The position numbers and the translations under genes were made by a program. A DNA stretch of 60,717 nt from an uncultured Methanosarcinales archaeon. GTDB taxonomy: Archaea; Nanobdellota; Nanobdellia; Woesearchaeales; GW2011-AR9. The notes below the pieces were generated by a model, which was given only the letters and a program-made list of their open reading frames with translations, had not been told where the DNA came from and did no database searches. The stretch is from contig CAZWBB010000007.1 of NCBI GenBank assembly GCA_964632045.1, positions 1-60,717 on the forward strand. The letters run 5' to 3'. Positions 28,037 to 60,717 of this stretch are shown here, piece after piece (position 1 is the stretch's first letter; every line of letters begins with the position of its first letter).

Positions 28037-28047
28037 TATGATTCACC

Positions 28048-28341: not shown

Positions 28342-28351
28342 TGCAGATCAC

Positions 28352-42206: not shown

Positions 42207-42710
42207 TCACCAGATATTGCCGTTAATCCCTTTCCGCTGCAGCTTCTCTATCTCCTTTTTCTCATGCGCCTGCAACATTCGATTTTTCTCATCATCAAAA
42301 TCAGTCTTTGCTGCAGAGAATCGTAAATCATATCCCTCAAAAACTTTCTGAAAAATATATCTGACCCTTTCCATATGAAAATCGGAACTTACTATCACTA
42401 AATCCTTTACTCCATACTTGTCAATAATCGGTTTTGCCAAAAGTGCATCCTCAACTGTATCGTGGCTCTCAGCAAATTCCAGAATATCCTCTTCCAGAAC
42501 ACCTTCTTTGATTAAAAACTGCTTTGCATAGTAGGCATGCGGTTTATCCGTGGTATTGAAGTGATTCCCAAATCCACCAGTCACTAGAATTTTATATCCC
42601 TCACGATTCCGATATTCCTCCATTCCTTTTTTGTTTCTGCCAACCGCAATATCAGACAAATTTCCTCCGTCATCATTCGGAGATCCCAGTATGGCAATGA
42701 TTCCATTCAT
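42207..42710 (-). CDS. YdcF/ElyC-like DUF218 family protein
   Basis: ILVTGGFG, ESHDTVEDA, IVSSDFHMERVR; start moved to ATG 42710. Confidence 0.85.
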   Translation of the reverse strand: MNGIIAILGSPNDDGGNLSDIAVGRNKKGMEEYRNREGYKILVTGGFGNHFNTTDKPHAYYAKQFLIKEGVLEEDILEFAESHDTVEDALLAKPIIDKYGVKDLVIVSSDFHMERVRYIFQKVFEGYDLRFSAAKTDFDDEKNRMLQAHEKKEIEKLQRKGINGNIW

Positions 42711-42839
42711 GTAGAAGAGTAAATGCTGCGAGTATATATTTGTTGCTATGCTAACACTAGACCGGCCAAAACATTTATAAATAAGCATCATCCTCAAGTA
42801 AATAATTTAACAAGTATTACACTATGGGGGGAAAGTGAA

Positions 42840-44861: not shown

Positions 44862-44927
44862 ATGTGCAGTGAGGCGGTGGAGCGGTGTGCAGTGAAGTAG
44901 CTGGCAGGGAGGCTACACATCCGCTAC

Positions 44928-46916
44928 ATGAAAAAAATGAGTGAAGAAAATGAACATGGGGGACGTACTATTGAGCATACGCACCGCACTCAGCAGGCTG
45001 CCCTCCAGCCCATATATATTCCCACAATAGATGAGATCGCTAGAAGCGAGAAGAATTACGGCATCTTGTTTGTAGGTAGTGGACGCTATTCGGTCCGAAA
45101 GACAGAATTAAGATATCTTGACTTTGAATCATGCAGGATCTTTTCTATGCTTTCGCTAGGTGGCAAAAATGTGATAAAAGCATTACTTTCTTATCAGGGA
45201 GAAGCATATTATAGCAAAAAATCATCCGAAGAAGAATTGGGAAAAGTTAACAGTGTCTACTCTTTGTCGCAGGACGATATATTGTGGTGTCCGGATGAAG
45301 AGACAAAAAAGCAACTGGGAAGTCTGTATGAATCCTGCTTAGTAGAGCATAGAGGGAGCATTATTATCGGCTGTTCCTCTCGCATGTATGATATAACAAA
45401 TGAAGAGATTCTGGTTGACATGCCAAGAGGCTCTGATATCCTTGATCTGGCCAGCCATGAGGATGACCTTTTTGTCTTGACAAAGGATAACTTCCGATCC
45501 AGTGTCTGGAAGACAGACAAATCTTCCATGGAAGAAGTGTTGCTTTATGGAGAGCTCAACCATCATACTGCCAATCATGGGATGATCCTTCTTCCCTACG
45601 GAATATTAAGGGGTAAAAACGACCAGGATTATCCTCTATCTATTCTCAGTTGTGTTCATGGCAGATATCTGGATCTTAATGGCGAGTATGTCCGAAAATC
45701 TGAGATGCATTTTAATTATATAACGAACATAGAACTACTATATCATTCTGATGACATTGCAGAGATTATCTGCTCCGGTCATAAAAAGGGAATCTGGAAG
45801 ATGAAGATCGACTTGGAAGACCGCAGGGTTGTGGAGAAAGAACCCCTACTTGAATATGGGAAGTCTCTGACAATCTCTGCCATGCAACCGATAGGAGATA
45901 TCTGTCTGCACCAGAAACTTATTGAGCGAGGCAGAGACAATGAAATCAAGAGCCAACCATTCAGGACGCTGGAAAGTTGCAGCTACTTCAAACAACTCAG
46001 TAGCATACAACCGGCACGTCGGTCTGATTCACCCACCACCCCTGCTCGATCCAACCTTTTAGGTATTATCTACAGCGTCTCTGACCATTTTCTCAAGTAC
46101 CTTGATATGGAAAGCAAGGCTTCATATTATCTTAATCAAAGAAAAAGGGGGGATGGACCGCTCTTCAGTATTTTTCCCCATGGGGAGGAAGTATATTTCT
46201 CCAGGGCACATCACAAATTCTCTATCCATTCGCTGCTTACAAAAATGTCCCCAGTCATCAGAGAGAGTAGACCCGAGACAATGTGTTTTCATAAAGGAAA
46301 GCTCCTTGATGCGGGAGAACATGGTATCATGGACACCCTAAGGAACAAATCGCTTCTCCCATATGAAGCTTTATTCGAGAGAAAAGTTGGTAGAATCTTT
46401 TTCCTCCAGACAGATCAGGACGGTAACCTCTTTGCCTTAGTCCAAAACCATAGTGCAAAGACCGCAATCCATGAAGTTGAAGACATCGATGGGAAATACG
46501 TATTACAAGAGGAAGTGTTCCAGTTTGAAGATAGCGGTATCTTTGATAGGTTTCATTGTATCCCGTATGGAAATTGCATGGGAAAGAATGGGAAAGAATA
46601 TGATTTCACCATCCTCCGATACAAATCCCTGGATTCATTATATCTCAATGGAGATAAGATCAAACATACCGAAGGGCTCAGACGGCTGCAACCCTTCGAT
46701 CTGAAGGGGAAAATTCTAGAGGCAGTGTACCTTACTGAGAACGTAGAAAGCTTCGCAAAGGTAAAGATCGATCTGGACAAAAAAGAGATCGTAGATAGGA
46801 TCTCATTGGAGAAGAGGATCCCTTCTTCCCACGAAATCCAACCAGTGACCGATCAAACGCTGCACGAGAAGCTGCTCAGGAAAGGCCAGGAAGTGATGAG
46901 GTTGATGCGGGGATGA
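44928..46916 (+). CDS. Tandem two-domain beta-propeller-like protein
   Basis: Two ~320-aa homologous units ending MQPIGDICLHQKLIERG and IQPVTDQTLHEKLLRKG. Confidence 0.7.
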   Translation: MKKMSEENEHGGRTIEHTHRTQQAALQPIYIPTIDEIARSEKNYGILFVGSGRYSVRKTELRYLDFESCRIFSMLSLGGKNVIKALLSYQGEAYYSKKSSEEELGKVNSVYSLSQDDILWCPDEETKKQLGSLYESCLVEHRGSIIIGCSSRMYDITNEEILVDMPRGSDILDLASHEDDLFVLTKDNFRSSVWKTDKSSMEEVLLYGELNHHTANHGMILLPYGILRGKNDQDYPLSILSCVHGRYLDLNGEYVRKSEMHFNYITNIELLYHSDDIAEIICSGHKKGIWKMKIDLEDRRVVEKEPLLEYGKSLTISAMQPIGDICLHQKLIERGRDNEIKSQPFRTLESCSYFKQLSSIQPARRSDSPTTPARSNLLGIIYSVSDHFLKYLDMESKASYYLNQRKRGDGPLFSIFPHGEEVYFSRAHHKFSIHSLLTKMSPVIRESRPETMCFHKGKLLDAGEHGIMDTLRNKSLLPYEALFERKVGRIFFLQTDQDGNLFALVQNHSAKTAIHEVEDIDGKYVLQEEVFQFEDSGIFDRFHCIPYGNCMGKNGKEYDFTILRYKSLDSLYLNGDKIKHTEGLRRLQPFDLKGKILEAVYLTENVESFAKVKIDLDKKEIVDRISLEKRIPSSHEIQPVTDQTLHEKLLRKGQEVMRLMRG

Positions 46917-47866
46917 AAACTGCGAGAGACCAAGCGATTTATATCCCGACAATAGAAGATTTGGCCGCACCTGATCCCCATGGTATCCTTTATTGCTCTG
47001 TTGATTATTGCATTAAGTATCTGGACATCCAGAATAAGAAATCATACCGTATCAACAAACGGGACATTGATCCTGGTCCCATCAGGGCCATACTTGTACA
47101 TGAAGGAGAAGTGTATTTTGCACGGGGGAAAAACGTCTCTACAATCTTTTCCCTGTCCGGAGGCATCATTTCTGATGTGAGGGAAGAAGGAACCTGCACC
47201 ATGAGCCAGCAAAGAGGAAAAATACTTGATGCGGGAGAATATGGGATCATGGATTCTTTGAATGACATACAACTCATCTCCAGGAAGGCAATGAAGAAAA
47301 GAAACCTTGACGTCATTCTATCCATGCCGGTTGATGATGAAGGTAACCTGTTCGTTCTGGCAGGTGATGATAAAGGAGATTCCCGCCTGCTGGAAGTTAA
47401 GGAGAAGCATGGAACGTACTATCTAGCTGATGAGATCTTCAGGTATAACAATAAGCATGGGGGAATTTCCCAAGTTCACTTTCTTCCCCAAGGAAGTTTT
47501 CGGGGGGATAATGGCAGATATTATCCTTTCTCGATCCTCGGTTGTGCCGAGGGCAAATTTCTGGATCTCAATGGTAGAAAAATAATTAACACTGATGCTA
47601 ATGGGAGCATTCCACAGATCTATCAGATCGCACTTCTAAAAAAGACAGGTGAAATTTTGCAGGTAGCATATTGCGGAGCGGGCAATATGGGAATTCACGT
47701 AGCAAAGATCCACCTAAATGCAAGGAGAGCGCTCGAAAACACTATTCTTGGAGGACATTCCCCATGTGGTGCCATGCAGCCGATAATGGACCACCCTTTG
47801 CACCAGAAGTTGCTGGACCGGGGGAAAGAGCAGGCTCCCGCGGAACAGCGTGCCGGGCAGCAATAG
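46913..47866 (+). CDS. Beta-propeller-like protein, paralogue of neighbours
   Basis: IYIPTIEDLA start motif, ILDAGEYGIMDSL, YPFSIL, MQPIMDHPLHQKLLDRG. Confidence 0.7.
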   Translation: MKTARDQAIYIPTIEDLAAPDPHGILYCSVDYCIKYLDIQNKKSYRINKRDIDPGPIRAILVHEGEVYFARGKNVSTIFSLSGGIISDVREEGTCTMSQQRGKILDAGEYGIMDSLNDIQLISRKAMKKRNLDVILSMPVDDEGNLFVLAGDDKGDSRLLEVKEKHGTYYLADEIFRYNNKHGGISQVHFLPQGSFRGDNGRYYPFSILGCAEGKFLDLNGRKIINTDANGSIPQIYQIALLKKTGEILQVAYCGAGNMGIHVAKIHLNARRALENTILGGHSPCGAMQPIMDHPLHQKLLDRGKEQAPAEQRAGQQ

Positions 47867-47867
47867 A

Positions 47868-48770
47868 ATGGGAAAAAACAAACCATCCGACATCCATATT
47901 CCAACGGTAGAAGAAATAGCCGCACAGGAAAAGGTTTATGGGATATTGTTTCCTGACAAAAAGAAATTAATGTACATGGCTGGAGAAAAACTGTATGCTG
48001 TGGGAAGCAGTGAAACCCAAATTGAACTGGTTTTCCCTACTGCCAATGAAGTTTATTTTGAAACTGGCAGAGCGATACATGCTCTTTTTTCAGGATCGAG
48101 TTCCGAAAAGAGAATTCCTAGCATCTATGGCATACGGGAATTTCACGGCAGAATTATTGATGTTGGAATGTATGGTATCTATGACACGCTTGATAACCGA
48201 CCTCTGCTTTCCGAAGAAGAATTAAACAAACAGGGAATTCACTGTGTCTACTCGCTGGAACTCGACCAATCAGGCAGACTATTTGGTGAGATCCGCTATG
48301 CGGATGACCGAGACGCCCTGGTAGAGATCAGGGAAGACTATTCGATTGGAGATGAACTCATAGATTTCTATCAGAGCAATGTAAGTCAGATAGAACTCAT
48401 CCCCTGGGGGAATCTGAAAGGAGAAGACGGAAAGAACTATCCTTTCTCCACCCTGAGCTGTATCAATTCCAATTCTATATACCTGAACAGACAAAGTATT
48501 TCCATATCGTTGGCTGATGTTGGAGAATCTATCCAGTTTTTCAGGCATCCGAAGTTGGATGGCGACGAACTGGAGATAGAATATTTTGGACTGCCTTCTG
48601 AGAAAACCTGGACAGCCAGGATTGACCTGAGCAAGAGAATGATGATAGGAAAAGAAGAGTCTAAAGAAGATTGGGGGGATTTGTATTATTCCGTCCAGGT
48701 TACCAGTCTTTTACTGCATCAGAGATTGGTGGAGAAGGGGAAAATAACTAACCCGTTGGAAAATGACTAA
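47868..48770 (+). CDS. Beta-propeller-like protein, paralogue of neighbours
   Basis: IHIPTVEEIA, IIDVGMYGIYDTL, YPFSTL, LHQRLVEKG; start moved to ATG 47868. Confidence 0.7.
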   Translation: MGKNKPSDIHIPTVEEIAAQEKVYGILFPDKKKLMYMAGEKLYAVGSSETQIELVFPTANEVYFETGRAIHALFSGSSSEKRIPSIYGIREFHGRIIDVGMYGIYDTLDNRPLLSEEELNKQGIHCVYSLELDQSGRLFGEIRYADDRDALVEIREDYSIGDELIDFYQSNVSQIELIPWGNLKGEDGKNYPFSTLSCINSNSIYLNRQSISISLADVGESIQFFRHPKLDGDELEIEYFGLPSEKTWTARIDLSKRMMIGKEESKEDWGDLYYSVQVTSLLLHQRLVEKGKITNPLEND

Positions 48771-50715
48771 ATCACAACTAAAACCAAAACTGGACGAACT
48801 TAGAAGAGACCAGGAATTCTTCAGAGATTTCAATCTTGATGAGACCACGGGGATGACCATGGCCAATATCGATCTGCAGAGTTATGAACTGAACATCTCT
48901 TACAACCCGGACTGGCTGGACGTTGTCATGGACAAAAAAACAGAGCAGTATCTCCGGAAGAAGAACATTCCCCAAGATCAAGCCCTGGAAGTCCTCCTAT
49001 CAGATACATTTATCCATGAGATTGGCCACAGGGGGACAAGAAGGTATAAAGGCTGTCCTGCTACAGCACTCAAACTGGCTGAGAAGTTCATCACTCCAAT
49101 CCAGGAGGTTACAGGTTGGCAGGATAAGGGAAAGTTGCATAAATTCACTAACAGCCTAATTGATGACATCAACAATACCATTATTAAGAGAGTGAACAGT
49201 CAAGAGGGAATTACCGACCTGGCTGGACTTTACCTATTTTTCAAGGAGCAGGGCAAGTTGATGGAGAGAGAGGGGGGTGGCCAATTCCATAAGCTGTTTG
49301 AATCGCACGTAAGATTGAACCTCTACCTCAATGGAGACAAGCACGACCATCGATTGGTAAGAGAGTATCTTACTTATGATGAAGAGGTGAATGTCGCTAT
49401 CAAGAACTTCCTACACAAGACAGGCATCTCAGAAATGAAAAGGGGACTTGAACTGGGAGAGCATACAGTGTTTGTGAAAGACAAGGAAAGGATCCGAGAG
49501 TATCTGATGGACGAAGATAACTGGGAGAACATCGCTAAGATCTATGCTGAAGAGTTTGCTAAATTCATGGATGAGCCACCAATAGAAAGGCTGTTTGGAG
49601 CTGGCGGTTGTTTGGGGGAAGATGACGAGTGCCCTGGTGGGGGTAGCAGTGGGGCTGAGGGCAGTGGAGCGGCATCCGGTGAGGAAGAAGGAACTGGCTC
49701 CTCTGAAAAAGGTGATTCTGGAAATGACAACCGACCTGGAGGAAATGGAATGCAAGAGAGTGGGCAAGAAACTGGCCAGGAAGAAGGAGGTAAATTCCCT
49801 TCTGGCGATGGTTTTGGCGATGAACTGAATACTCTCATCATGAAGAAAAAAGTTATCGCCAATGGTATCAAAGCAGGCAAAGAACCGGGATGGATGACCA
49901 ATTTTGAATACCTTGAATGCCTCTATGAGATACTTGCGGAAGACAAGATCTTTGAGCTGATAGCTCCGAAGATGGAAAGCAAGATCTATCCTCTGATTGA
50001 TCTGAACGAAAGAAGTTTTGATTATGAGGAAGATTCTCCCAGGGATATCATCGGCTTCCATTACGACGCAGATAACAAAGGTTTGGAGCTTACTGTAGGC
50101 AAGTACAAATATAACATCGAAGCAAAGGTGCGAAAGGAAGTATGCAACCGTCCGGATCTAGTATTTGCCATGCTGGATACTTCCAGCAGTATGCAATGGG
50201 ACATGCCAAAAGGAGCACCTCTCGGAAAAGTGGTCAATCCTAGAGCTCCCAACGGGCAGCAGTGGCGGTACAACAGCAAATATCATGTCGCTTTAATCAC
50301 TTACTTCATGGCTGTGCAGAGGTTTGATGAACTGAATGTCCATGAAGCTGATGCTTACTTCGCAAATTTCAGCAGTTCCACGATCCTCAGCCAGGGGTTG
50401 AAGCAATCCAAGCTGGAAGCGCTGCACCCACAGTTTGGCGGGACGCAGGTTGAGATGAAAAAAGTAAGTGAGCTTCTTGAAAAAAGAAATTCGCTGATCT
50501 TCACCATCTCCGATGGGGAGATCGGAAACTGGGGAAACCTGTTTGGAAAGATGAAAGAGATCGCTGAATACAATCCCTGTTTCCACGTGCAGATCGGAGA
50601 ACACAGCGCTTACAGCAGAGGGCTGCTGGAGAAAGGACTCTTTGTCAAGCAGGTTATAGAAGAGAAAGAGTTGTATGATTTTGTGATAGATCTAACTGAT
50701 ACGCTTTATGGATGA
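48763..50715 (+). CDS. Zincin (HEXXH) plus vWA/MIDAS domain protein, MoxR partner
   Basis: FIHEIGH; Gly/Ser/Glu-rich linker; MLDTSSSM (DxSxS), GGT, TISDG. Confidence 0.85.
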   Translation: MTKSQLKPKLDELRRDQEFFRDFNLDETTGMTMANIDLQSYELNISYNPDWLDVVMDKKTEQYLRKKNIPQDQALEVLLSDTFIHEIGHRGTRRYKGCPATALKLAEKFITPIQEVTGWQDKGKLHKFTNSLIDDINNTIIKRVNSQEGITDLAGLYLFFKEQGKLMEREGGGQFHKLFESHVRLNLYLNGDKHDHRLVREYLTYDEEVNVAIKNFLHKTGISEMKRGLELGEHTVFVKDKERIREYLMDEDNWENIAKIYAEEFAKFMDEPPIERLFGAGGCLGEDDECPGGGSSGAEGSGAASGEEEGTGSSEKGDSGNDNRPGGNGMQESGQETGQEEGGKFPSGDGFGDELNTLIMKKKVIANGIKAGKEPGWMTNFEYLECLYEILAEDKIFELIAPKMESKIYPLIDLNERSFDYEEDSPRDIIGFHYDADNKGLELTVGKYKYNIEAKVRKEVCNRPDLVFAMLDTSSSMQWDMPKGAPLGKVVNPRAPNGQQWRYNSKYHVALITYFMAVQRFDELNVHEADAYFANFSSSTILSQGLKQSKLEALHPQFGGTQVEMKKVSELLEKRNSLIFTISDGEIGNWGNLFGKMKEIAEYNPCFHVQIGEHSAYSRGLLEKGLFVKQVIEEKELYDFVIDLTDTLYG

Positions 50716-50794
50716 ATGGTCGGCGTTCAGGAGGGCAGTGAATCAGCAAATCTGGCAAGAAATTGTTTGTACGAACTAGCCAAAATAGTGATTT

Positions 50795-50810
50795 GCGAAA
50801 GGTTTATATA
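50795..50810 (+). promoter_or_regulatory. Archaeal BRE-TATA promoter
   Basis: GCGAAAGGTTTATATA ending 28 nt before ATG 50838. Confidence 0.55.
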
Positions 50811-50837
50811 TTACTTATGGTAATAGTATTATTATCG

Positions 50838-51437
50838 ATGGTAATAAATAGATCTAGGGTCGAAATATTGAAACTATTATTAAAGGATCCTCTTATGAGG
50901 TACAGTATTAGAGAAATTTCCATGAAAACAAATGTAAACTACAGACTTACGCATCAGGAAATTATCTCTTTGCACAATCAGGGAATAATTTCTATTGAGA
51001 AAATGGGGCCGAGCAGCATCTGTTCCCTCAATATTGAGAAAGATGTGCCCTTGTACACTTACATCGAGAGTCTTAGGAAAGACAGCTTCCAGTTAAAGCA
51101 CAAAAGTATCAAAGTAATTCTCCACGAACTGAGAAGGATTTCAACACAGTATTACACACTTCTTGTCTTTGGAAGTTATGCGAGTGGTAAGGAGAAAAGA
51201 AAAAGCGATCTCGACCTTCTTTTTGTGATTCCTGATCGGTTAAGTGCCGTTAAGTTCGAACGTGAGGTGAAATCTCTTTTGCACTCCCTCAGCTACAAAC
51301 TCGATATCAATGTAATTACAGAAAACAGCCTCATGGAGATGAAAAATGCCACAGAACTCAATATTGTAAACGAAGTTATTAAAAATCATATAATTCTGCG
51401 AGGAGCGGAACAATACTTCCATCTGCTAGGAAAATGA
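50838..51437 (+). CDS. wHTH plus minimal nucleotidyltransferase (MNT, antitoxin-like)
   Basis: N-terminal HTH (YSIREIS..); VFGSYA..SDLDLLFV. Confidence 0.85.
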   Translation: MVINRSRVEILKLLLKDPLMRYSIREISMKTNVNYRLTHQEIISLHNQGIISIEKMGPSSICSLNIEKDVPLYTYIESLRKDSFQLKHKSIKVILHELRRISTQYYTLLVFGSYASGKEKRKSDLDLLFVIPDRLSAVKFEREVKSLLHSLSYKLDINVITENSLMEMKNATELNIVNEVIKNHIILRGAEQYFHLLGK

Positions 51438-52024
51438 TTACTGACAAAGATATTGAACAGTCAAGAGGGATACTACAGCAGCTTATTCAGGAAGGTACAA
51501 TAATTACAGCAGACCAGCAATTTGTTGACTTCTTCTTGACAAAGGCAGAGAGTTCTCTCGAAACTGCCCAAGCTCTCTTCAACATTTCCGAAAGGTTGGA
51601 GATGAAGAACCAATTACAGCTTTCTCAATCTTACGAAGCATATATGTGGGTAGTTAATACTGCTTATTACGCTATGTTCTATGCTGCAACTGCCCTTTTG
51701 GCAAAATTCAATCATCGTATCAAAGCGGAACAGAGCATCCATTCATTGACGTATCATGCTTTGGTGTACTACTTTCTGGATCATAATAAGAAATTGACCA
51801 AGCATGTCCTTGAACGGTATCGGGAGGCAGAGGAAGAAGCAGAGGAACTGCTGCAGATTGCAGAAAGAAAAGCCAGAGAGCATGTAGAGGTTGTGAAATT
51901 TGAATTGTCTAAAAGGAGAGAGTTCACTTATGAGATGGGAAAGATTGCTGAGAGGAATAAAGCGGAAACTTCAATCAAGAGGACAGAAGAGTTCTTAACT
52001 TTGGTAAAGGAAATCATACTGTAA
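51434..52024 (+). CDS. HEPN domain protein
   Basis: WVVNTAYYAMFYAATALL, H, RREFTY; ATGA-coupled to MNT. Confidence 0.8.
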   Translation: MITDKDIEQSRGILQQLIQEGTIITADQQFVDFFLTKAESSLETAQALFNISERLEMKNQLQLSQSYEAYMWVVNTAYYAMFYAATALLAKFNHRIKAEQSIHSLTYHALVYYFLDHNKKLTKHVLERYREAEEEAEELLQIAERKAREHVEVVKFELSKRREFTYEMGKIAERNKAETSIKRTEEFLTLVKEIIL

Positions 52025-52047
52025 CAATACACAAGTAACCTATTCCA

Positions 52048-53295
52048 TCAACCACCCAGATTATTCTTTCCCAAATCCCCCAAACTCACACAAACCAAGT
52101 CATCCAGTCTGACGTGCTTTCTGCCAACATCTTTAACCTGTTCAATGGTCAGTTGATCAAGGAAGTCAAGATGGGTGTTAATTCTTTGCATATCCCCTAA
52201 CAGCCAAAATTCTAATGCTGTCTTGGCTTTGGCCATGGTCGTTGAATTCTGCAAAACGTAACTTTTCTTTCGCTTCTCTATTGCGTCCAAAATGAAGTCC
52301 TCAGGTATTTTCCCTTCAGAATACTTGCTAAACTCCTCACCGATCAACTCTCTTACCCTGTTGTAGTCTTTTGCATCGCATGTAGCGTAAGCGACAAGAG
52401 AACCAGCGCACCTGTTGCTGTCGTAATAAACCCAACGGTTGTATGATATCGGCTCCTGGTTAAGAATCCTCTCAGACACTGATCTGGACAAAGATGATCC
52501 CAGCACAGTCAAAGGATATGAATCCTCACCACCCCAGGCTGGAACGAGTCTTCCCATCATAAGGTGCACATTGTCCAGCTCTTTTGGAATCACTATCTCT
52601 TTGGCTTCATTAGGCGGAAGAACAACCTTAGACACTTCATGGGATGGGCCATTGCTTTCCATTCCAAAGTATTTCTGAACCATTTCCTCAACTTCTTTGT
52701 AAGGCAGTGAACCAACTACAAATATATTGGTATTGGCAGGAGTGAACATCTCTTTGTAAAATTGCGCCACCTCACACGGATCAAAAGATTCCACAACTTC
52801 CGCAAAGCCGATGATCGGTCGTGCTAGGTCACATCCTGCAAATTGATTTTGGGTATAACTGTCCCACAGGCAGCTATAAGGGTCATCTGCTCTGTCTCTT
52901 ATCTCACTCAGGACAATCTTCTTTTCTTTCTCGATTTCCTGCTCCTCCATCCTGGCATCATACAGAACGTCAGAAAGCAATTCCAATGCAGATTCAAAAT
53001 CTTCCCGGACGACCCGCATACCAAGAGGAATATTTCCCTGCGTGGTGTGGCAGTACCATTGCCCGCCTAAAAGTCCAAATTCATTATAGATGACATCCCT
53101 TGAACCTCTTTTGGACGTACCTTTGAAGATCATATGCTCAACCAAATGTGAGATTCCAGCGTTCTCATCCGTTTCATAGAGTGAGCCCGCATTGATGTTG
53201 GCGATTACTGAAATATCATCAGACGGCGATTCTATGTAAAAAAGAGTGGCTCCGTTTTCAAACGTTTTCTCTTTAATTTGATATTTTATTGTCAT
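52048..53295 (-). CDS. M16 (pitrilysin-like) zinc peptidase
   Basis: GSLYE..GISHLVEHMIFKGT inverted HXXEH; EKEKKIVLSE. Confidence 0.92.
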   Translation of the reverse strand: MTIKYQIKEKTFENGATLFYIESPSDDISVIANINAGSLYETDENAGISHLVEHMIFKGTSKRGSRDVIYNEFGLLGGQWYCHTTQGNIPLGMRVVREDFESALELLSDVLYDARMEEQEIEKEKKIVLSEIRDRADDPYSCLWDSYTQNQFAGCDLARPIIGFAEVVESFDPCEVAQFYKEMFTPANTNIFVVGSLPYKEVEEMVQKYFGMESNGPSHEVSKVVLPPNEAKEIVIPKELDNVHLMMGRLVPAWGGEDSYPLTVLGSSLSRSVSERILNQEPISYNRWVYYDSNRCAGSLVAYATCDAKDYNRVRELIGEEFSKYSEGKIPEDFILDAIEKRKKSYVLQNSTTMAKAKTALEFWLLGDMQRINTHLDFLDQLTIEQVKDVGRKHVRLDDLVCVSLGDLGKNNLGG

Positions 53296-53439
53296 TAGTA
53301 TCCCTCGTTTTATTACAAAGACAGCCAGTATTTAAAACTTTTGCTACTAACAAGTAAAACTGTGGCAAAAGATTTAAATAAGAAAACCACTCCGTGCAAT
53401 AAAAGGGGGATTCTGAATAGTAATTAGGAGGAAAATAAA

Positions 53440-53979
53440 ATGGAATACGAAGAATTAGAAAAAATGGTTGGCGAAACTCCTCTAAAGGATAAAGTAGCCG
53501 CAATAGGTTCGTTGCTGCTGATGCACCGGCAAACTGATACCTTTATGCAAGAGTTTGCTTCAAGTGATGAATTCGAAGCAAAGTATGGAAACATAGAAGA
53601 AGAGACTGCTGACCTCAGTGTAAGGATAGTGAAAGATGGTATTGATTATACAGAGAAAAAACTTAAAGAAGAATTTGATAATAATGAAGTTCTGCAACAG
53701 GCTTTGGGTGAAAGAGCAGACGAAATTCGTGATGCTTACACAGGATTCGTCTCATCCTTCACCAGAGTAACGGCTGTCGGCCAAGGCTTTGCTGATTACA
53801 TACGCCATAGGATCAATGATATGGATGAGGACGATCTCGAAGGTGACCAATTACCAGTTGCCGTGGGCCAGATTGCTGAGGATTACGTAGGACTGTTGGG
53901 TGGTGGTGCAGAAGTAGAAACCGCTGTAGCTGCACTTTCTGTAAAGTTTCTTGAATTGACAAGGCCTTCGTACTGGTAA
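53440..53979 (+). CDS. Acidic helical hypothetical protein
   Basis: AGGAGG RBS; AAAGATTTAAATA upstream; short hairpin and T-tract downstream (53991-54013). Confidence 0.7.
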   Translation: MEYEELEKMVGETPLKDKVAAIGSLLLMHRQTDTFMQEFASSDEFEAKYGNIEEETADLSVRIVKDGIDYTEKKLKEEFDNNEVLQQALGERADEIRDAYTGFVSSFTRVTAVGQGFADYIRHRINDMDEDDLEGDQLPVAVGQIAEDYVGLLGGGAEVETAVAALSVKFLELTRPSYW

Positions 53980-54098
53980 ATTTGTACTTTCCGCCTTTGG
54001 TGGCCTTTTTTTTAATTTTTTACTTTTCTCTCTCATAAGTAGAAGACAAATACACTATATCCCCAAATTATTTATACTTCAGAGATATTCCTTCTGTT

Positions 54099-55412
54099 AT
54101 GGGGGCTCCCAGGGACAATTTCTATGCAAATATAAGCACGTCTAGTGGGATCACTACTGTTCTGGATCCATTTCAGATCTACCTTTCTGCCAGCAAGCAA
54201 TATCCTCTGCTATCACGGCGAGAAGAGCAAGAGCTGGGGAAGGAACTTGAGCAATGCTACCATGGATTCTTTTCGTCACTTTGCATCTACAGTGAAGAGT
54301 CGACCGACCGGCCCAAGTTTGACGGACCTTCCATATTTCCCAAAAGGCTTCTTCTGAAGGAGAGATTTCCTCTTCTTTACGACAATGGCCTTACCACTAG
54401 CCTGGGTTTTCTGTATTGGGAAGTGAAATCTCTCTTTGACGACGGAAGAATTGATGAGAAAACCTATCAACAGTTCTTTGAGTGGGGACAGAATATTGAT
54501 ACTTGTGAATTTTTCACACCAGAACAATGTCGTGAACATCAGAAGTATAATACTTTGTTTGAATTGCTTCACTACAAGATTCCCAGGAGTGCTCTTCGTA
54601 CCGCTGGAACCAACCTGCACAAGCACATGCAAAAAACAAATCAATCTTCAGGAGTAGAAAGGTTGCTGCGTCTCTGCGTCCACCACGAAAAGCAGCTGGT
54701 GAACAGGCTTACCTGCTCAAACGTAAGGATGGTGGCTAAGATCGCCCTGGATTATCATAGGACTCACCAAACATATATCCGCGGACTGGACTTGCTTGAT
54801 CTGGTGCAGCACGGGAACCTGGGACTGATGAGAGCCATCGAGAAATTCGAGTATCGTCGTGGCTATCGCTTTGCATCCTATGCTTACAGGATTATTAGCC
54901 AGGAGATCCAGAGGGGCATAATGAGGGAAGCGAGAACCGTACGGTTGCCAGGCGCTTTCCAGAGGAAGTATAGGACATATATGGAGGCACGCCTCAAGTT
55001 GGAACACGAACTGGTACGGGATCCTACCCTACAGGAATTAGCAGAAGAGATGCAAATGGATGTTCCTGCTTTAATGAAGTTCCTGCAGATGCCCTCCAAG
55101 CAGAATCCCATGGAAAAACCTACAGGAGAATGTGGAAAAGTAGTCGCAGATTATATCCCCGATCCTCAAGGCAGTCCTGAAGAACTGACTGAGCAAGTGA
55201 GATTAGCTGATAGATTTGATACACTTTTCTACGAGCGGTTAACTCCAAAGGAAGAGAAAGTACTGCGCATGCGTTATGGGGTGGGAGAAGAAAGCGACCA
55301 CACACTGCAGGAAGTGGGTGACCATTTCTCAGTGACCAGGCAGGCGATTAACCTTGTGGAGAAAAGTGCAATGAGGAAGTTGAAAGAAATAGTGGTAAGT
55401 GGTAAGTGGTAA
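54099..55412 (+). CDS. Bacterial-type sigma70 (group 1/2-like) factor, degenerate promoter-recognition motifs
   Basis: Region 1.2 DPFQIYL..YPLLSRREE; 2.1 SNVRMVAKIA; 2.2 DLVQHGNLGLMRAIEKF; 2.3 GYRFASYA; ARTVRLP; region 4 LTPKEEKVLRMRYG..TLQEVG. Confidence 0.92.
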   Translation: MGAPRDNFYANISTSSGITTVLDPFQIYLSASKQYPLLSRREEQELGKELEQCYHGFFSSLCIYSEESTDRPKFDGPSIFPKRLLLKERFPLLYDNGLTTSLGFLYWEVKSLFDDGRIDEKTYQQFFEWGQNIDTCEFFTPEQCREHQKYNTLFELLHYKIPRSALRTAGTNLHKHMQKTNQSSGVERLLRLCVHHEKQLVNRLTCSNVRMVAKIALDYHRTHQTYIRGLDLLDLVQHGNLGLMRAIEKFEYRRGYRFASYAYRIISQEIQRGIMREARTVRLPGAFQRKYRTYMEARLKLEHELVRDPTLQELAEEMQMDVPALMKFLQMPSKQNPMEKPTGECGKVVADYIPDPQGSPEELTEQVRLADRFDTLFYERLTPKEEKVLRMRYGVGEESDHTLQEVGDHFSVTRQAINLVEKSAMRKLKEIVVSGKW

Positions 55413-55538
55413 GTTTAAGATGCAGATATCGCAGCCACAACTTACCACTAAGGACGTAGTCCCGCTACCACTTTACAACTTAACACTATATACAACATAT
55501 CCCTCACCTTTTTATACATCAAGAATATACTTTCTGGG

Positions 55539-56879
55539 ATGGGGGAGATACCTAGTTCTGAAGAAGTATTGTATTCGGAGGCATTAGTAGCCGGTAATAA
55601 GAACCGTGTCAAGAGGTTGAACACTCTTGGTGTATACATGAATGAAGCAGGTAAATTTCCTTTGCTCGGTGGGGAGGAAGAGAAAAAGTTGGCTCAGAAG
55701 ATTGAGTTCTGTTACCATGGTCTGCTTTCCATGCTCTGTGAGTATCAAGGTTATGATGATGATGGGGAGACAACCAATGGCTACCATCTTCTGCGTAACC
55801 AATACTACAAGTTGATGCGCAAGAAGTATCATGGAATTCGGGATATGTTTGATGAGTTTGGTGAAGTAGAGAAGGACATATATCTAAAAGGAGGGATATT
55901 TGATAAAGAAGCCAGGTACTGCGAACTTAATGGAGAACTTTATGATAAGCTGTTTGACCTTCTTGTCTATAGATTGCCACGTAAAGCAGTTAAGGACGCT
56001 GCCAGAACGCTCTCCAGCCATGTCAGCGATGAGTTGCGCTGGATGGAAGGTTCTCTGTTCAACAACCCTGAACGTCGCCGTTTTCTGGAGAACCTGAAGA
56101 AGGAGTTGAACCGACATCTGAGATTGGAGAAGAGATTTTCTCACAAGTTTGTACAATCAAATCTCCGTTTAGCGATCAAGATAGCTGGCAACCATTACCG
56201 GACCTATAAAGTTTACATGCACTCTCTTGATTTCAGTGACCTGGTCCAATACGCAAATGAAGGTCTGCTCACAGCGGTAGACCGGTTTGATTACCGCAGG
56301 GGGAACAGGTTTTCTACTTATGGCTCTTACTGGATCAGGCAAGCTGTAGGTAGAGGAGTTGCCGACCACGCCAGGACTGTCCGTTTTCCAGTCCATGTTA
56401 TCCAGGACCTTTCAAAATTCCATGCCAGCATCAGAAGACTAACTCCTCTCCTTGAAGGCAGACCAACCCTGGAACAGATCGCTGAAGAAAGCCGACTTCC
56501 ACTGGAGAAGGTCACTGAACTATCCAAGATGCACAAGTATCACGATTCTCTGAACAGGAAGGTGGGAGAGGATGGCGATGCAGAACTGCTTGATCTCATT
56601 GCTGATGAAAAGATACCTTCCCCGGAGAAAGTTACGTCGGAAGTCAAGAGAAGTGAATCTACCGGGCGATTATTGGCCGGCCTTACACCAAGGGAAGAGA
56701 AGATTCTGCGTATGCGCTTCGGAATAGGAGAACCCAGAGAACATACTTTGGAGGAAGTGGGACAGCATTTTGGTTTTACCAGGGAAAGGGCCCGGCAGAT
56801 AGAAGCAAAAGCATTGAAGAAGCTGCAGAAGAAAGGCTTAGCTCTGCAGGAATTGAAAGGTTGCCGTGAAGCTGTTTGA
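55539..56879 (+). CDS. Bacterial-type sigma70 (RpoD/RpoS-like) factor
   Basis: Region 1.2 YMNEAGKFPLL; SNLRLAIKIA; DLVQYANEGL..AVDRFDYRRGNRFSTYGSYWIRQAV; ARTVRFPVH; LTPREEKILRMRFG..TLEEVGQHFGFTRERARQIE. Confidence 0.95.
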   Translation: MGEIPSSEEVLYSEALVAGNKNRVKRLNTLGVYMNEAGKFPLLGGEEEKKLAQKIEFCYHGLLSMLCEYQGYDDDGETTNGYHLLRNQYYKLMRKKYHGIRDMFDEFGEVEKDIYLKGGIFDKEARYCELNGELYDKLFDLLVYRLPRKAVKDAARTLSSHVSDELRWMEGSLFNNPERRRFLENLKKELNRHLRLEKRFSHKFVQSNLRLAIKIAGNHYRTYKVYMHSLDFSDLVQYANEGLLTAVDRFDYRRGNRFSTYGSYWIRQAVGRGVADHARTVRFPVHVIQDLSKFHASIRRLTPLLEGRPTLEQIAEESRLPLEKVTELSKMHKYHDSLNRKVGEDGDAELLDLIADEKIPSPEKVTSEVKRSESTGRLLAGLTPREEKILRMRFGIGEPREHTLEEVGQHFGFTRERARQIEAKALKKLQKKGLALQELKGCREAV

Positions 56880-56977
56880 ACTACCACCGATAAGCTTAAA
56901 AAGGACGCATGAAATTTACTACTAAAATCGTCTAAATGAGTTCTATGCTTGTTTTTGCGAAACATGGAGTGATATAT

Positions 56978-57406
56978 ATGGCAGTGAAGAAAGGAGATAA
57001 GATAAAAGTTGAATATACCGGAACGCTTGATGATGGAACGGTCTTTGACAGTTCTGAAAAACATGGTCAGCCCCTGGAGTTTGAAGTTGGCAGTGGACAG
57101 ATCATCAAAGGTTTTGATGAAGCAGTCGTAGGGATGAAAGAAGGTGAGGAGAAAGAGATCAAGCTTCCACCCGAGCAAGCATACGGTGATCCCAATCCAC
57201 AGATGGTCCAGAAAGTGCCAAAAGACAAATTACCTAAAGAGATCGAAGCTAAGGAAGGGATGATCCTGATGATGGCCTTGCCAAATGGACAGCAGCTACC
57301 TGCACGTCTTGTTAAAGTAGAAGAGACCGAAGTGACGATCGACCTGAATCATCCTCTTGCCGGCAAGACGCTGAACTTCAAGATCAAGGTAATTGGAATC
57401 AGTTAA
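56978..57406 (+). CDS. FKBP-type peptidyl-prolyl isomerase (SlyD-like, short archaeal form)
   Basis: KGDKIKVEYTGTLDDGTVFDSS..GQIIKGF..PPEQAYG..DLNHPLAGKTLNF; start moved to ATG 56978. Confidence 0.93.
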   Translation: MAVKKGDKIKVEYTGTLDDGTVFDSSEKHGQPLEFEVGSGQIIKGFDEAVVGMKEGEEKEIKLPPEQAYGDPNPQMVQKVPKDKLPKEIEAKEGMILMMALPNGQQLPARLVKVEETEVTIDLNHPLAGKTLNFKIKVIGIS

Positions 57407-58082
57407 CAAAATACCCATAAGTACTTCTATTTCTTTCTTTTTCAATTTCTCCAACCAGAGAAGTCTCTTTGTAGACCCTTCGGTAAGCTTTGACCATATC
57501 CGTGTAAATCGTAAATCCTTTACCGAAGATGGCCTTTTTCACATCTTCATTTATCGTATTTTCCATCTCATGGATGGAGGATCTTGCCGACCCGCAGGAT
57601 CTTTCTCCGTTTTCCTGAAGAACAGCTTCTATACGAGCAAGAAAACCGTATTCCGGTTCAAATTTATGCAGTTTGAAGATATCCCTATGTACTCTCTCGG
57701 CTATGGCTGCATGAGAGCGGTACAGTTTTGCCGGCGAATAGTCACACGCCCCCTCCCCGATGAGCATAGCTCCTGCATCTATTCCAATCTCAAAAGCCTG
57801 TATATAGCCAAGCTCAGTGATTCTCTGCTGCAGTCTTTGTGAAGGTCTCAACTTAGGTATGTTGATCCTTCCGTCATCATACAATGGATGACTCACCTCA
57901 TGCAGTACCAGGAAAGGAAGTGATTTCTTAAGAAGATCCAGGTCGTCGTCAGATTCCAGATTGATGAACTCCATGAATTCCTTGGGAATCATCTGCTTCA
58001 TCTCCAGCTTCAATTCCTGGCGCTGTTCCAGGCGGAGTACCTGCCGCAACTGCATTCCCAGACTCATTCCCATTGACATCAT
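57399..58082 (-). CDS. HEXXH (zincin-like) protein with Gln/Leu-rich sigma54-region-I-like N-terminus
   Basis: MSLGMQLRQVLRLEQRQELKL; LVLHEVSH; downstream FEIGID. Confidence 0.65.
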   Translation of the reverse strand: MMSMGMSLGMQLRQVLRLEQRQELKLEMKQMIPKEFMEFINLESDDDLDLLKKSLPFLVLHEVSHPLYDDGRINIPKLRPSQRLQQRITELGYIQAFEIGIDAGAMLIGEGACDYSPAKLYRSHAAIAERVHRDIFKLHKFEPEYGFLARIEAVLQENGERSCGSARSSIHEMENTINEDVKKAIFGKGFTIYTDMVKAYRRVYKETSLVGEIEKERNRSTYGYFVN

Positions 58083-58726
58083 GCAACCTCCTCTGCTCTC
58101 TTTTCGGAATCCATGAAGAAACCTCTCCTATTATAGCGTATGGATGCATAGTTACCTTTTGCTTCCCCCACATTGATCCTTTCCGGCAGATCTACATCAA
58201 AATATTCAGCGACTTTCTTCACGATATTAGTTGCTGAGCGCCTGAGAGCAGCCTTCCGGTAGTTTATTCTTTTCGTAGCTGCTTTAGTACCTCCATCCGC
58301 ATTATTCAATAACGGCCTGGATCTCCCAGATATATACGGAGCGGGATTCTTATTGAGCATCATTGGGAATTTCGTTCTTAACCGCTCATAAAAAAGGTCA
58401 CCAACCCTGTCTGTCAGAGATTCCAGTGACTTGGAGTGGTCCATCGCCAGGACATCCACTATATGATCCAGCCATCTCAGGTGGATTATGCTTGTATCTG
58501 CTTCCCCAGCATAGAAATCGATCATCTTGATCCTTTGGTCCACACCCATCTTCTCAGGTTCAAGTTCCAACCGGGCGATCTGTGACTTGAACAGGTCATC
58601 CATCTCAATATGGACTGTATCCTCAATTATCTGATATTCAATATCTTCCTTCTGCAGACGCTGCACTACGTCCATCATCTTCAATCCTGTTTCTTTTGCA
58701 GCCTGTCGTAATGTTCTGTATGTCAT
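58079..58726 (-). CDS. Hypothetical protein with probable N-terminal HTH
   Basis: YRTLRQAAKETGL pattern; ATGA-coupled to the downstream gene. Confidence 0.6.
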   Translation of the reverse strand: MTYRTLRQAAKETGLKMMDVVQRLQKEDIEYQIIEDTVHIEMDDLFKSQIARLELEPEKMGVDQRIKMIDFYAGEADTSIIHLRWLDHIVDVLAMDHSKSLESLTDRVGDLFYERLRTKFPMMLNKNPAPYISGRSRPLLNNADGGTKAATKRINYRKAALRRSATNIVKKVAEYFDVDLPERINVGEAKGNYASIRYNRRGFFMDSEKRAEEVA

Positions 58727-58735
58727 TTCAATATA

Positions 58736-59374
58736 CTATGATACCAATAGATGCTCATCCTCATCCCTAAAGTAATACCACTTTGCCTTCTTCATCGATT
58801 CTTTAAGCTGACCCATAAAGTCTTGTGCTGGATCAACCACCATGATAATGCTATCTGATGCAGTGTATCTAACCCAGGCATGTCCACCACGATACATCGT
58901 ATTCCTGTCCACACTGACTTTCCCCCGGATATAACCTTCCTTCCCGAAGCGTTCCAGCAGGAAACCGCCAAATACAGCCTGATGGCGACAGACCCCTACT
59001 CCTTCTGCCAGATAGAGATCCAGGGAAATTTTCCCATCATTCTCAACATCATATCTTCCCATTATCTCTGTGACCGCACCTTTGTCGTACTGTAACTTCT
59101 CCCTGACAAAATCTTTTACTGTCGGAAGGATGATACTCCTGTCAACCAGCCCATCCTTTGGATCGACTGTCCTTTGCAAGGCTTCCTCAAAGCACAGCAG
59201 CAGTTGAGGCGATTTTGTTGAATCTACCACGATCGCTTCCCTTTGATGTGCCCCCAGATAGACACCTCCATCGATAGGAGAATCTCTTGTGATGATAGGC
59301 CTGTCGGCATATTTCCCATCTACTATCTCGTATTCCAGACGTTTTTTCAAATATTGTGTACGGTCCCAAGCCAT
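58736..59374 (-). CDS. Transglutaminase/papain-like Cys-His-Asp protein (EDR1-like)
   Basis: GVGVCRHQA, GGHAWV, VVDP; ATG at 59374. Confidence 0.75.
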   Translation of the reverse strand: MAWDRTQYLKKRLEYEIVDGKYADRPIITRDSPIDGGVYLGAHQREAIVVDSTKSPQLLLCFEEALQRTVDPKDGLVDRSIILPTVKDFVREKLQYDKGAVTEIMGRYDVENDGKISLDLYLAEGVGVCRHQAVFGGFLLERFGKEGYIRGKVSVDRNTMYRGGHAWVRYTASDSIIMVVDPAQDFMGQLKESMKKAKWYYFRDEDEHLLVS

Positions 59375-59556
59375 CAATTATTCTGAGGTAAGCAAGTTTA
59401 TAAAAGTTTTGGTGGTTGTGAGTGGAGAGTGGTTATTAGGTGGGAGTTGAGTCATCCAATGCACTCCCTACGGCACTGTCCAGAATGGAGATAAATCGTA
59501 TACTGGACAGCGCCCTCCTGCAAAAACTATATAAATGAATATTCATTTCCTTTACC

Positions 59557-60450
59557 ATGGCAAAACCAAAATTCGAATTCAAAGATCAGTACGTCAGCCA
59601 TGTTACCGGACTGGTTGCAGTTGAAAACAAAGAGATAGGAGAACTTCTTGCTGCTTTGGAAGATTTGAAGAAGGAAAGGAAGAGCACAAAGAAGGACCTA
59701 AGAAAGATAATACATATCTGGAAATATCTCTCCCGGACAGAAATCTATGTGGACAGAGATATGAGATATATTGTTGGAGAACTGAACGTGCATGGTACGG
59801 GTCCAGACTACAGTTTCTTTGCACATTATTCTCCCAAAGGATTCCTGGAAAAAGTTACTGACCTGGATTCGAAATTAGAAAAGTACAGGAAAATACTGCT
59901 AACTGCCTTAAGTAGAGGACTTGCTGGCCTGGGAATGGGAGAAGTTGGTCAAGAGTTGAGTGAGATCCGGAAGATTGAATTAGATCTGGAGAAGCATGCA
60001 AAAGATGCAGACCGGAAGAAAGTCTTCCGGCTTATTACCAATCTGGAAAGAGTACTGAGCGATCTAAAAAAATGGACCGCAGGAGCAGAAGCAGTTCTGA
60101 AGCAGGTCAGAGATTTGATGGAAGAAGCTTCTGTTAACATTAATGTAGAGCATTTGCTGCTGGAAGGCGAAATGGATAGATGGCACCATACCCTAAAAGA
60201 AGTCGAGGCGATTGTTAAAGCGTTCCACGTAAGAGTATCTCTTGACAAGCACCAAATTGAAGCCATCCTTGATGAGAGATTTTCCCATGAACCAGTTAAA
60301 GAACTAAACAACTTCTTTGCATGGCTGCAATCACATAAGGATGAGATTGATCCGAAAGGAAACTGGCTAGAAGAGCTAATTGCAGATCTTGATGAACATC
60401 ATCTGCAACGCGGTCTCGATTTTGAGTCTACTTTTGGTGACATGGTCTGA
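59557..60450 (+). CDS. Helical/coiled-coil hypothetical protein
   Basis: 297-aa ORF; AAACTATATAAAT about 25-30 nt upstream. Confidence 0.7.
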   Translation: MAKPKFEFKDQYVSHVTGLVAVENKEIGELLAALEDLKKERKSTKKDLRKIIHIWKYLSRTEIYVDRDMRYIVGELNVHGTGPDYSFFAHYSPKGFLEKVTDLDSKLEKYRKILLTALSRGLAGLGMGEVGQELSEIRKIELDLEKHAKDADRKKVFRLITNLERVLSDLKKWTAGAEAVLKQVRDLMEEASVNINVEHLLLEGEMDRWHHTLKEVEAIVKAFHVRVSLDKHQIEAILDERFSHEPVKELNNFFAWLQSHKDEIDPKGNWLEELIADLDEHHLQRGLDFESTFGDMV

Positions 60451-60592
60451 GACTGATACGGTTGTAGTTAAACGGAAGATGATCTGGCAGATAGTGAGAG
60501 TACAGCCCATGCGACGACGGGAGGTTTCTTCCGATAGAATTGCGGCTGTGATTCACAACCATTAAAAACCAGGAGTAAAGGCAACTTTTTGT

Positions 60593-60717
60593 ATGATTAT
60601 CAAACCAAAAACACTTCGCTCAAAAATCATCCATAAAGGTTGGCTGGACCTCTCCATCGATACTATTCAATACGATGGCAGTGAACCATACGACTACCAT
60701 GTCGTCCGTATCAATTA
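60593..60717 (+). CDS. Probable NUDIX (ADP-ribose pyrophosphatase-like) N-terminus, truncated by window end
   Basis: MIIKPKTLRSKIIHKGWLDLSIDTIQYDGSEPYDYHVVRIN resembles NudF N-termini; Nudix box not in window. Confidence 0.4.
   Translation, partial: MIIKPKTLRSKIIHKGWLDLSIDTIQYDGSEPYDYHVVRIN

Follow-up and report, generated by a model that had tools for sequence, protein, structure and literature searches.

The window examined in this study is a stretch of 60,717 nt that makes up one entire contig (C7) of a 2.21-Mb archaeal assembly in 79 contigs, and near its end it carries two tandem genes of the sigma-70 family. These genes, hereafter gene 1 (54099-55412, + strand; 437 aa) and gene 2 (55539-56879, + strand; 446 aa), are paralogues that have diverged from each other, and their family, which came from bacteria, is now resident in Woesearchaeota-type DPANN archaea and has expanded there. 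Their presence, integrity, archaeal context, lineage-wide spread and residue conservation were established by the observations described below. As for their role, we tentatively propose that the proteins serve as accessory transcription factors, dispensable ones, on the archaeon's own RNA polymerase, which seems possible rather than assured. The use of sigma factors in bacteria and of TBP/TFB in archaea is what, by textbook accounts, sets transcription initiation in the two domains apart. Here, a sigma family has been kept in about four in ten of the sampled genomes of a phylum with its docking and promoter-reading residues still present, and no bacterial polymerase was found in the genomes that were searched for one.

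Two sigma-70 genes in a DPANN-type genome

Both open reading frames (ORFs) matched the Pfam models of sigma-70 regions 1.2, 2, 3 and 4 above the gathering scores. In gene 2, region 1.2 (aa 30-56, 55626-55706; PF00140) scored 30.3 bits against a cut-off of 22, region 2 (aa 205-279, 56151-56375; PF04542) 42.3 bits against 24, region 3 (aa 298-364, 56430-56630; PF04539) 49.6 bits against 25.3, and region 4 (aa 378-431, 56670-56831; PF04545) 61.6 bits against 24.1, all on the + strand. Gene 1, a degenerate paralogue, matched the same models on the same strand: region 1.2 (aa 23-51, 54165-54251) reached 23.4 bits, barely above its cut-off, region 2 (aa 208-280, 54720-54938) 53.3 and 56.9 bits in two scans, region 3 (aa 294-362, 54978-55184) 29.2 bits, and region 4 (aa 380-430, 55236-55388) 43.9 bits. 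Neither protein matched region 1.1 (PF03979) in the Pfam scan; the full-length closest relatives, P0001 and P0151, likewise lack this region, and many of the longer relatives listed have it. Regions 1.2 and 2 are separated by an insert of about 150 residues, which is poorly alignable among the paralogues and mostly helical in the AlphaFold model of gene 2. That model, built on 32 archaeal homologues, had a predicted local distance difference test (pLDDT) value of 84.4 and a predicted template modelling (pTM) score of 0.62, and its best structural matches were the sigma-70 chains of E. coli and Vibrio holoenzymes (E = 1.8e-18 and below, spanning about 415-500 alignment columns). The top NCBIfam matches of both proteins were RpoD models, with scores far below the equivalog cut-offs (NF004208, 193.7 bits for gene 1 and 266.5 bits for gene 2, cut-off 555; TIGR02393, 168.8 and 230.5 bits, cut-off 354).

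The rest of the contig is archaeal. An aEF-2 gene (23860-26058, - strand), which scored 1012.9 bits with TIGR00490 (cut-off 738.45), lies 28 kb from the sigma genes, and a cluster of the L7Ae, S28e and L24e ribosomal proteins adjoining NDK (27647-28669, - strand) and a TrmB-type regulator are encoded on the same contig. The closest named relatives of the aEF-2 were annotated as 'Nanoarchaeota archaeon' (86%) and 'Candidatus Woesearchaeota archaeon' (80-84%), and by these markers the host of the sigma genes is a DPANN-type archaeon. The sequence-only reading of this DNA had described tandem sigma-70 ORFs with regions 1.2, 2, 3 and 4, an insert and no region 1.1 on an archaeal contig of a DPANN-type host, each behind a TATA box at leaderless spacing, and all of this was confirmed. 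The genome was estimated to be 89.4% complete with 1.55% contamination. Its size, 2.21 Mb, exceeds that of every relative listed (0.5-2.1 Mb; mostly 0.7-1.6 Mb).

Could a bacterial fragment have been mis-assembled or mis-binned into this archaeal genome? The assembly is a 79-contig draft, the read depth is low and the contigs of the runs are fragmented, and a related genome, G245, contains a copy nested within bacterial RpoD on a short branch (Shimodaira-Hasegawa-like approximate likelihood ratio test (SH-aLRT), 98). However, the depth was even at 2-6x over 41000-60717 in two DNA runs with neither joints nor variants, the aEF-2 gene is on the same contig, and the guanine-plus-cytosine fraction of the sigma region (0.44-0.456) matches that of the contig (0.37-0.46). 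The archaeal TATA boxes before both genes, homologues in 130 of 301 phylum genomes including single-contig ones, paralogues on four contigs, and an identity of at most about 50% to listed RpoD or primary sigma proteins, over regions 2-4 only, point the same way. The chimeric assembly against which the sequence-only reading had cautioned was, thus, not borne out, and we consider an artefact to be practically negligible as an explanation. Mis-binning of DPANN sigma-70 genes was also excluded independently by means of co-encoded marker proteins by Castelle et al. (2021, Front Microbiol, PMC8204110). Eight DNA runs from two studies were listed for this organism, labelled marine or seawater metagenome, and no RNA run was among those listed.

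A TTTATA box of the archaeal leaderless type stands 28 nt before the ATG of each gene (54071-54076 for gene 1 and 55511-55516 for gene 2, + strand). Across 2021 upstream regions of the genome, TTTAWA peaked at -30 from the called ATGs (83 sites, with 55 at -31 and 53 at -29); the gene calls behind this and the other promoter scans were crude longest-ATG ORFs (2055 genes), whose start sites are approximate. TATA-like boxes also precede the paralogues on C6 and C25 and the first of the two on C58 (C58a), and the second (C58b) was ambiguous. The 60 nt upstream of gene 1 (54039-54098) and of gene 2 (55479-55538) are identical at 37 of 60 positions without gaps, as compared to 11-22 of 60 for other paralogue pairs. 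Since the two proteins are only 31% identical, the likeness of their promoters suggests shared regulation or promoter conversion.

Sigma70_r2 was matched six times in the genome, twice on C7, twice in tandem on C58, and once each on C6 and C25. All six matches are open full-length frames of 379-505 aa with 29-40% mutual identity. Of 24 other genomes in the family, 20 also had the domain, as did 7 of 16 from elsewhere in the order. In the sample taken across the phylum, it was present in 130 of 301 genomes (a tally that counts one unpublished genome, G286), including the single-contig genomes G040 and G175 and the two-contig genomes G043 and G209, and in 27 of 36 family genomes, with no match in the other 9. 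Tandem sigma arrays recur in other genera. The earlier reading had held that the genes are retained and duplicated, and the six full-length paralogues, the spread through the phylum and the site-specific constraint described below agree with it.

Several copies stand out. Six copies are more than in any other genome of the family among those listed. The C6 paralogue (G000 C6:19304-20821, - strand; L112:8305-9822), at 505 aa, is the most RpoD-like of the six and matches E. coli RpoD at every -10/-35 reading position compared. It has a different, longer N-terminal part and a Shine-Dalgarno-like GGGG before its ATG, which is not the leaderless layout. In G245, three consecutive sigma genes (L118; G245:C3:17754-20145) include the above-mentioned one within the bacterial RpoD clade, which represents a recent second acquisition or a foreign contig.

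An exhaustive HMMER search returned 88,443 relatives (E <= 0.001). Of the 150 best, P0001 (97%), P0003, P0008, P0010, P0072 and P0081 alone were matched over the full length with the N-terminal part, P0003 being identical to the C58a paralogue in the tree, and most of the others were longer proteins or apparent fragments matching residues ~180-431 only. A word-indexed search added one full-length orthologue, P0151 (59%); its matches were otherwise partial on gene 2 at about 36-51% identity, and the named ones were all RpoD or primary sigma factor. Homologues from sister genera shared 26-45% identity with gene 2 in whole-gene matches, as compared to 62-83% for A' in the same genomes. Scans of metagenomes and genome contigs gave only distant relatives (31-45% identity, mostly over regions 2-4), and the titled records in the genome-contig scan were bacterial, with matches for which a generic peptide of region 4 was probably the seed. 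A viral origin was also considered and gained no support, as the viral-contig scan gave a single relative at 27% identity.

A quick maximum-likelihood tree was calculated with IQ-TREE from 68 rows and 228 columns, after rows with fewer than 200 of 233 profile positions, rows with a span of more than 330 aa and exact duplicates had been dropped (134 to 115 rows) and the bacterial rows had been thinned from 64 to 12 at ~80% similarity. The backbone was unresolved, with 34 of 64 inner branches open, and the archaeal branches were long (median end branch 0.74 versus 0.01-0.44 for most bacterial RpoD rows). Both window genes fell into a weakly supported group (SH-aLRT 85-86) made up solely of rows from archaeal genomes and two unlabelled representatives, which includes the C58 and C25 copies. 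Within it, gene 1 paired with C58b (SH-aLRT 93) and gene 2 grouped with C58a, C25 and one G056 copy (SH-aLRT 91). Since the gene order is the same in the C7 and C58 tandems, the pair was probably duplicated as a block. In an approximately unbiased (AU) test, from which the RpoD-nested row of G245 had been set aside after inspection of the tree, a single clade of the 46 archaeal rows versus 17 bacterial rows was not rejected (delta lnL 3.57, p-AU 0.455). A single old acquisition is, thus, compatible with the data, and non-rejection does not establish the clade.

Conserved residues, polymerase and promoters

The archaeal homologues (46 sequences) and 12 bacterial RpoD proteins were aligned to E. 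coli RpoD, whose numbering is used throughout, and the roles of the tracked residues in clamp docking, melting and -35 reading are those assigned in the sigma-70 literature. In the docking helix of region 2.2, D403 was kept in all 46 archaeal sequences, Q406 in 39, and E407 and N409 in 35 each. The melting residues F427, Y430, W433 and W434 were kept in 42, 39, 32 and 41 sequences, respectively, and in the -35 reading head R584 was kept in 42, E585 and R586 in 43 each, and R588 and Q589 in 44 each. Regions 2.2, 2.3 and 4.2 ranked highest for conservation in the archaeal set, and region 3 ranked lowest in both the archaeal and bacterial sets. The rank order of the regions partly parallels that of bacterial RpoD, except for region 2.4, which is the most conserved in bacteria and relaxed in archaea (0.52 versus 0.90), as is region 3.0 (0.41 versus 0.76). 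These observations suggest that, as a family, the archaeal proteins are under the constraint profile of working sigma factors.

The two window genes differ in what they have kept. Gene 2 retains nearly all key residues, among them Y430, W434, R436, Q437, R441, H455, R584, E585, R586, R588 and Q589, and has Tyr at W433, Gly at T440 and Tyr at E407. Within the whole set, gene 1 stands apart: D403, Q406 and N409 are kept, E407 is replaced by His, and the substitutions W433R, W434I, R436S, H455A, E585Q, R586A, R588N and Q589L are present. When compared with a list of housekeeping -10 and -35 positions (Y430, W433, W434, Q437 and T440; R584, E585, R588 and Q589), gene 1 keeps only Y430, Q437 and R584, gene 2 keeps all but W433 and T440, and the C6 paralogue keeps all.

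The loss of most DNA-reading residues from gene 1, the long branches of the tree and the 9 family genomes without any match are what would be expected of decaying relics, that is, genes transferred once, disused and drifting neutrally. In contrast, all six frames in the genome are open and full-length, the window genes exceed the Pfam cut-offs in all four regions, site-specific conservation is seen across genera whose overall identity is 26-45%, and the promoters have been kept, those of the window being more alike than the proteins. Neutral decay, thus, appears very improbable.

The polymerase available in the cell is archaeal. The rpoC and rpoB models matched nothing but the split archaeal genes on contig C8 (A'/A'' and B''/B'), with scores far below the cut-offs (280.9 bits versus 963.5 and 160.7 bits versus 801, respectively), and bacterial beta and beta' were not found in the genome. 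In 20 sigma-bearing relatives, no match to beta' exceeded the cut-off. The genome encodes TBP, two TFB and TFE-alpha. The check for bacterial rpoB/rpoC that the earlier reading had proposed, therefore, turned up none in the genome and, for beta', none in those relatives. By parsimony, a gene that many reduced genomes have retained is most simply taken to act in its own cell. Based on these results, we propose a mechanism as described below. Region 2.2 would dock on the clamp coiled-coil of Rpo1N (A'), a surface that is also used by TFE and Spt5. DNA would be read by region 4.2 and, in gene 2, by regions 2.3/2.4 as well, and this reading would bias initiation at a small set of target promoters. 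Gene 1, with three of the four tracked docking residues kept and its DNA-reading residues lost, might be a non-reading partner or competitor of gene 2.

Docking was predicted by folding A' residues 1-420 with gene 2 residues 24-296, both as alignments. The score was 0.52, as compared to 0.01 for the best of three controls, contact agreement between the runs was at least 94% and the pLDDT of the partners was at least 73; the outcome was graded as weak support. The mark for a pass was reached by 58 of 80 solved complexes and by 2 of 110 mismatched pairs. The pass may also reflect likeness to solved complexes of bacterial sigma and beta'.

The conserved residues also bear on whether the polymerase is needed at all. 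Archaea commonly regulate with bacterial-type helix-turn-helix proteins, and the region 4 helix-turn-helix could act as a sequence-specific repressor or activator of archaeal promoters with no polymerase contact. Region 4.2 is among the best conserved regions, with R588 and Q589 in 44 of 46 sequences, the autoinhibitory region 1.1 is absent, conservation is weak in the finger region 3.2 and the archaeal clamp lacks adaptation to sigma, all of which would suit such a regulator. On the other hand, the conservation of the clamp-docking helix speaks against a mere DNA binder, the strand-capturing aromatics F427, Y430 and W434 are kept and would be needless for plain binding of duplex DNA, and both genes retain all four domains at full length. 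We, thus, regard a polymerase-independent regulator as unlikely, while keeping it under consideration.

Several results weigh against the proposal that the sigma proteins work on the archaeon's own polymerase. The clamp coiled-coil of A', located by alignment to E. coli beta' 255-315, was virtually identical between 16 sequences from sigma-bearing genomes (including the genome studied here) and 13 from genomes without a sigma match, and no adaptation of the polymerase to sigma is, thus, seen. The archaeal A' has Ile, Leu and His at beta' R275, E295 and A302, which we take to be positions critical for sigma-70 docking. As for the predicted docking, passing scores of 0.60 or less occurred in only 7 of the 80 solved complexes and in both passing mismatches, and the tool's own guidance counts a pass in this band as wrong in the majority of cases if the guess had not been likely at the outset. 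Conservation is lowest in region 3.2, whose finger reaches into the active-site channel (0.37 versus 0.64 in bacteria). The patchy spread, with 27 of 36 family genomes carrying sigma genes, indicates that they are dispensable.

The promoter scans add to these points. Sites of the form TTGACA-N16-18-TATAAT were found in 80 of the 2021 upstream regions, a slight excess over the 57.3 +/- 7.8 of 30 shuffles, and among 180 permuted -35 hexamers TTGACA ranked first at up to 2 mismatches and eighth at up to 3. There was no spacer specificity, the sites occurring at 0.150 per 1000 positions with spacers of 16-18 bp and at 0.126 +/- 0.027 with other spacers, and no positional peak of -35/-10 sites was seen in the upstream regions of the genome. 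TTGACA alone ranked 1st of 180 in upstream regions, 3rd in 738 fully intergenic regions and 11th in coding sequence. The evidence, thus, leans negative on a canonical -35/-10 regulon in the own genome.

Neighbouring genes and a possible bacterial target

Some of the same results would be expected if the target lay outside the cell. Sigma proteins made from archaeal promoters might reach a bacterial partner, prey or host, load on its core RNA polymerase and re-programme or jam its transcription by means of their docking helix, which is conserved, and a -35 reading head of the housekeeping type. Phage sigma factors act on the polymerase of their host, and nuclear-encoded plastid sigma factors act on a polymerase from another genome. 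Residues whose bacterial counterparts contact the beta' coiled-coil, the melted -10 strand and the housekeeping -35 box are kept in 32-46 of the 46 archaeal sequences, and the archaeon's own clamp differs at the three key docking positions and does not co-vary with sigma. Spacer-specific promoters were not detected in the own genome. Fast evolution (26-45% identity versus 62-83% for A'), multiple copies and a patchy distribution would also suit an effector. In addition, the genome encodes an SLT murein-lytic (lytic-transglycosylase) domain (G000 C16:39503-39859, + strand; 47.4 bits) within an 803-aa frame, and two papers report that peptidoglycan hydrolases are prominent in Nanoarchaeota and that marine DPANN archaea have murein transglycosylases (PMC12352652, PMC10936187).

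No delivery route was evident for such an effector, and the N-termini of the sigma proteins are hydrophilic by eye. None of eight window neighbours compared recurs in 61 sigma loci of the own and related genomes (tblastn, E <= 1e-3; flanks of ~1.5 kb), and the neighbours with a Pfam annotation have no secretion theme. No neighbour is common to the four sigma loci of the genome, and the neighbours of the other paralogues are unrelated, namely a kinase, an MFS transporter, FG-GAP, AAA, Fe-S and NAD-binding proteins and an aminotransferase. The SLT domain was found in 158 of 301 phylum genomes (a tally that counts the unpublished G287) and in none of four control archaea. When it was cross-tabulated with sigma, G286 and G287 being excluded, the two were not associated across the phylum (odds ratio 1.26, p = 0.35, n = 299). 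Only within the family were they associated (odds ratio 8.75, p = 0.017, n = 37, with no correction for relatedness), and outside the family the odds ratio was 1.0. Besides, the literature found identifies no bacterial host for the lineage, and the archaeal clamp did not fail as a docking partner in the prediction. Taking both sides together, we think an effector acting across domains doubtful.

Partners were sought in the genome as well. For anti-sigma factors, there was no STAS match and an RsbW-type HATPase_c_2 match of 23 bits lay below the cut-off; zf-HC2 and FlgM were not searched for. A strongly acidic ORF of 179 aa (53440-53979, + strand), located 120 nt upstream of gene 1 and on its strand, matched no family; the genome has no paralogue of it, and no homologue of it was seen next to the sigma genes of relatives. 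At 2 kb upstream of the sigma genes (50763-52024, + strand), a nucleotidyltransferase gene (PADLOC PDC-M05A, E = 3.4e-17) overlaps a HEPN-domain gene by 4 nt, and this pair resembles an MNT-HEPN toxin-antitoxin.

Known systems and other genes of the window

The sequence-only reading had rated the pair as the best candidate for an undescribed system in this DNA, a claim that did not hold, because sigma-70 genes of DPANN archaea (fam00359) had already been published as 'particularly prevalent in Woesearchaeota' (Castelle et al. 2021, PMC8204110). In that paper, no anti-sigma factors were found and the controlling mechanism was called unclear. As far as its description goes, the family there is like the one studied here in having a Woesearchaeota-type host with TBP, TFB and TFE and in that no anti-sigma factor was found. 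A full-text literature search found no functional study of DPANN sigma-70 genes. The mere presence of these genes in DPANN archaea is, thus, not new, and the puzzle has been in print since 2021. Beyond that paper, the present analysis adds a census of the paralogues, a survey of conservation at the residue level, a comparison of the clamp, scans for promoters and a docking prediction, and what is new in outcome is the residue-level conservation, the degeneracy of gene 1, a clamp coiled-coil that does not differ between genomes with and without sigma and the null result for spacer-specific promoters.

When compared with RpoD / SigA, the window genes are alike in domain order (1.2, insert, 2, 3, 4) and in their top structural and NCBIfam matches, and gene 2 has the -35 reading head and most of the -10 residues. 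They differ in falling below the equivalog cut-offs, in lacking region 1.1 and in having archaeal-looking promoters, while no bacterial core polymerase was found in the genome and gene 1 is without the DNA-reading residues. The second-best NCBIfam match was MzaA of the MZA anti-phage system (NF041931; PADLOC PDLC02203), which aligned over regions 1.2-4 (residues 24-429 and 23-432). However, the scores of 181.8 bits for gene 1 and 240.9 bits for gene 2 were far below the cut-off of 800, the PADLOC match covered regions 2-4 only, and the five genes flanking the sigma pair had no PADLOC match, which places the proteins outside MzaA. A defence system was, thus, rejected, since the MzaA matches span sigma domains only. 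Phage and nuclear-encoded plastid sigma factors are alike in that a sigma gene is carried in a genome without a bacterial-type core enzyme, but they have a known bacterial-type core target, whereas here only the archaeal polymerase is at hand.

If the sigma proteins do act on the archaeal polymerase, a bacterial initiation factor would have been fitted onto a Pol II-like enzyme, which would bear on the interchangeability of the two machines. If they are effectors, they would represent a new kind of inter-domain interaction and an archaeal counterpart of the phage and plastid sigma factors. Either reading is testable with recombinant proteins, for which gene 2 is a good candidate.

Three further parts of the window were observed in passing. 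An adenylate kinase gene (26364-27014, - strand) adjoining aEF-2 encodes the long type with a lid domain and scored 289.4 bits with the NCBIfam equivalog NF001380 (cut-off 251), and it may be another bacterial-type gene on the contig. At 44928-48770 (+ strand), three adjacent paralogues of 662, 317 and 306 aa with 24-33% identity and no Pfam match are flanked by two further large unannotated genes. Finally, nine large genes on one strand (1-20330, - strand; 294-1409 aa), the first of which is truncated by the contig end, gave weak matches, below the cut-offs, to protein kinase, PP2C phosphatase, TPR and bacterial Ig-like domains, and this run may be a large signalling or surface operon.

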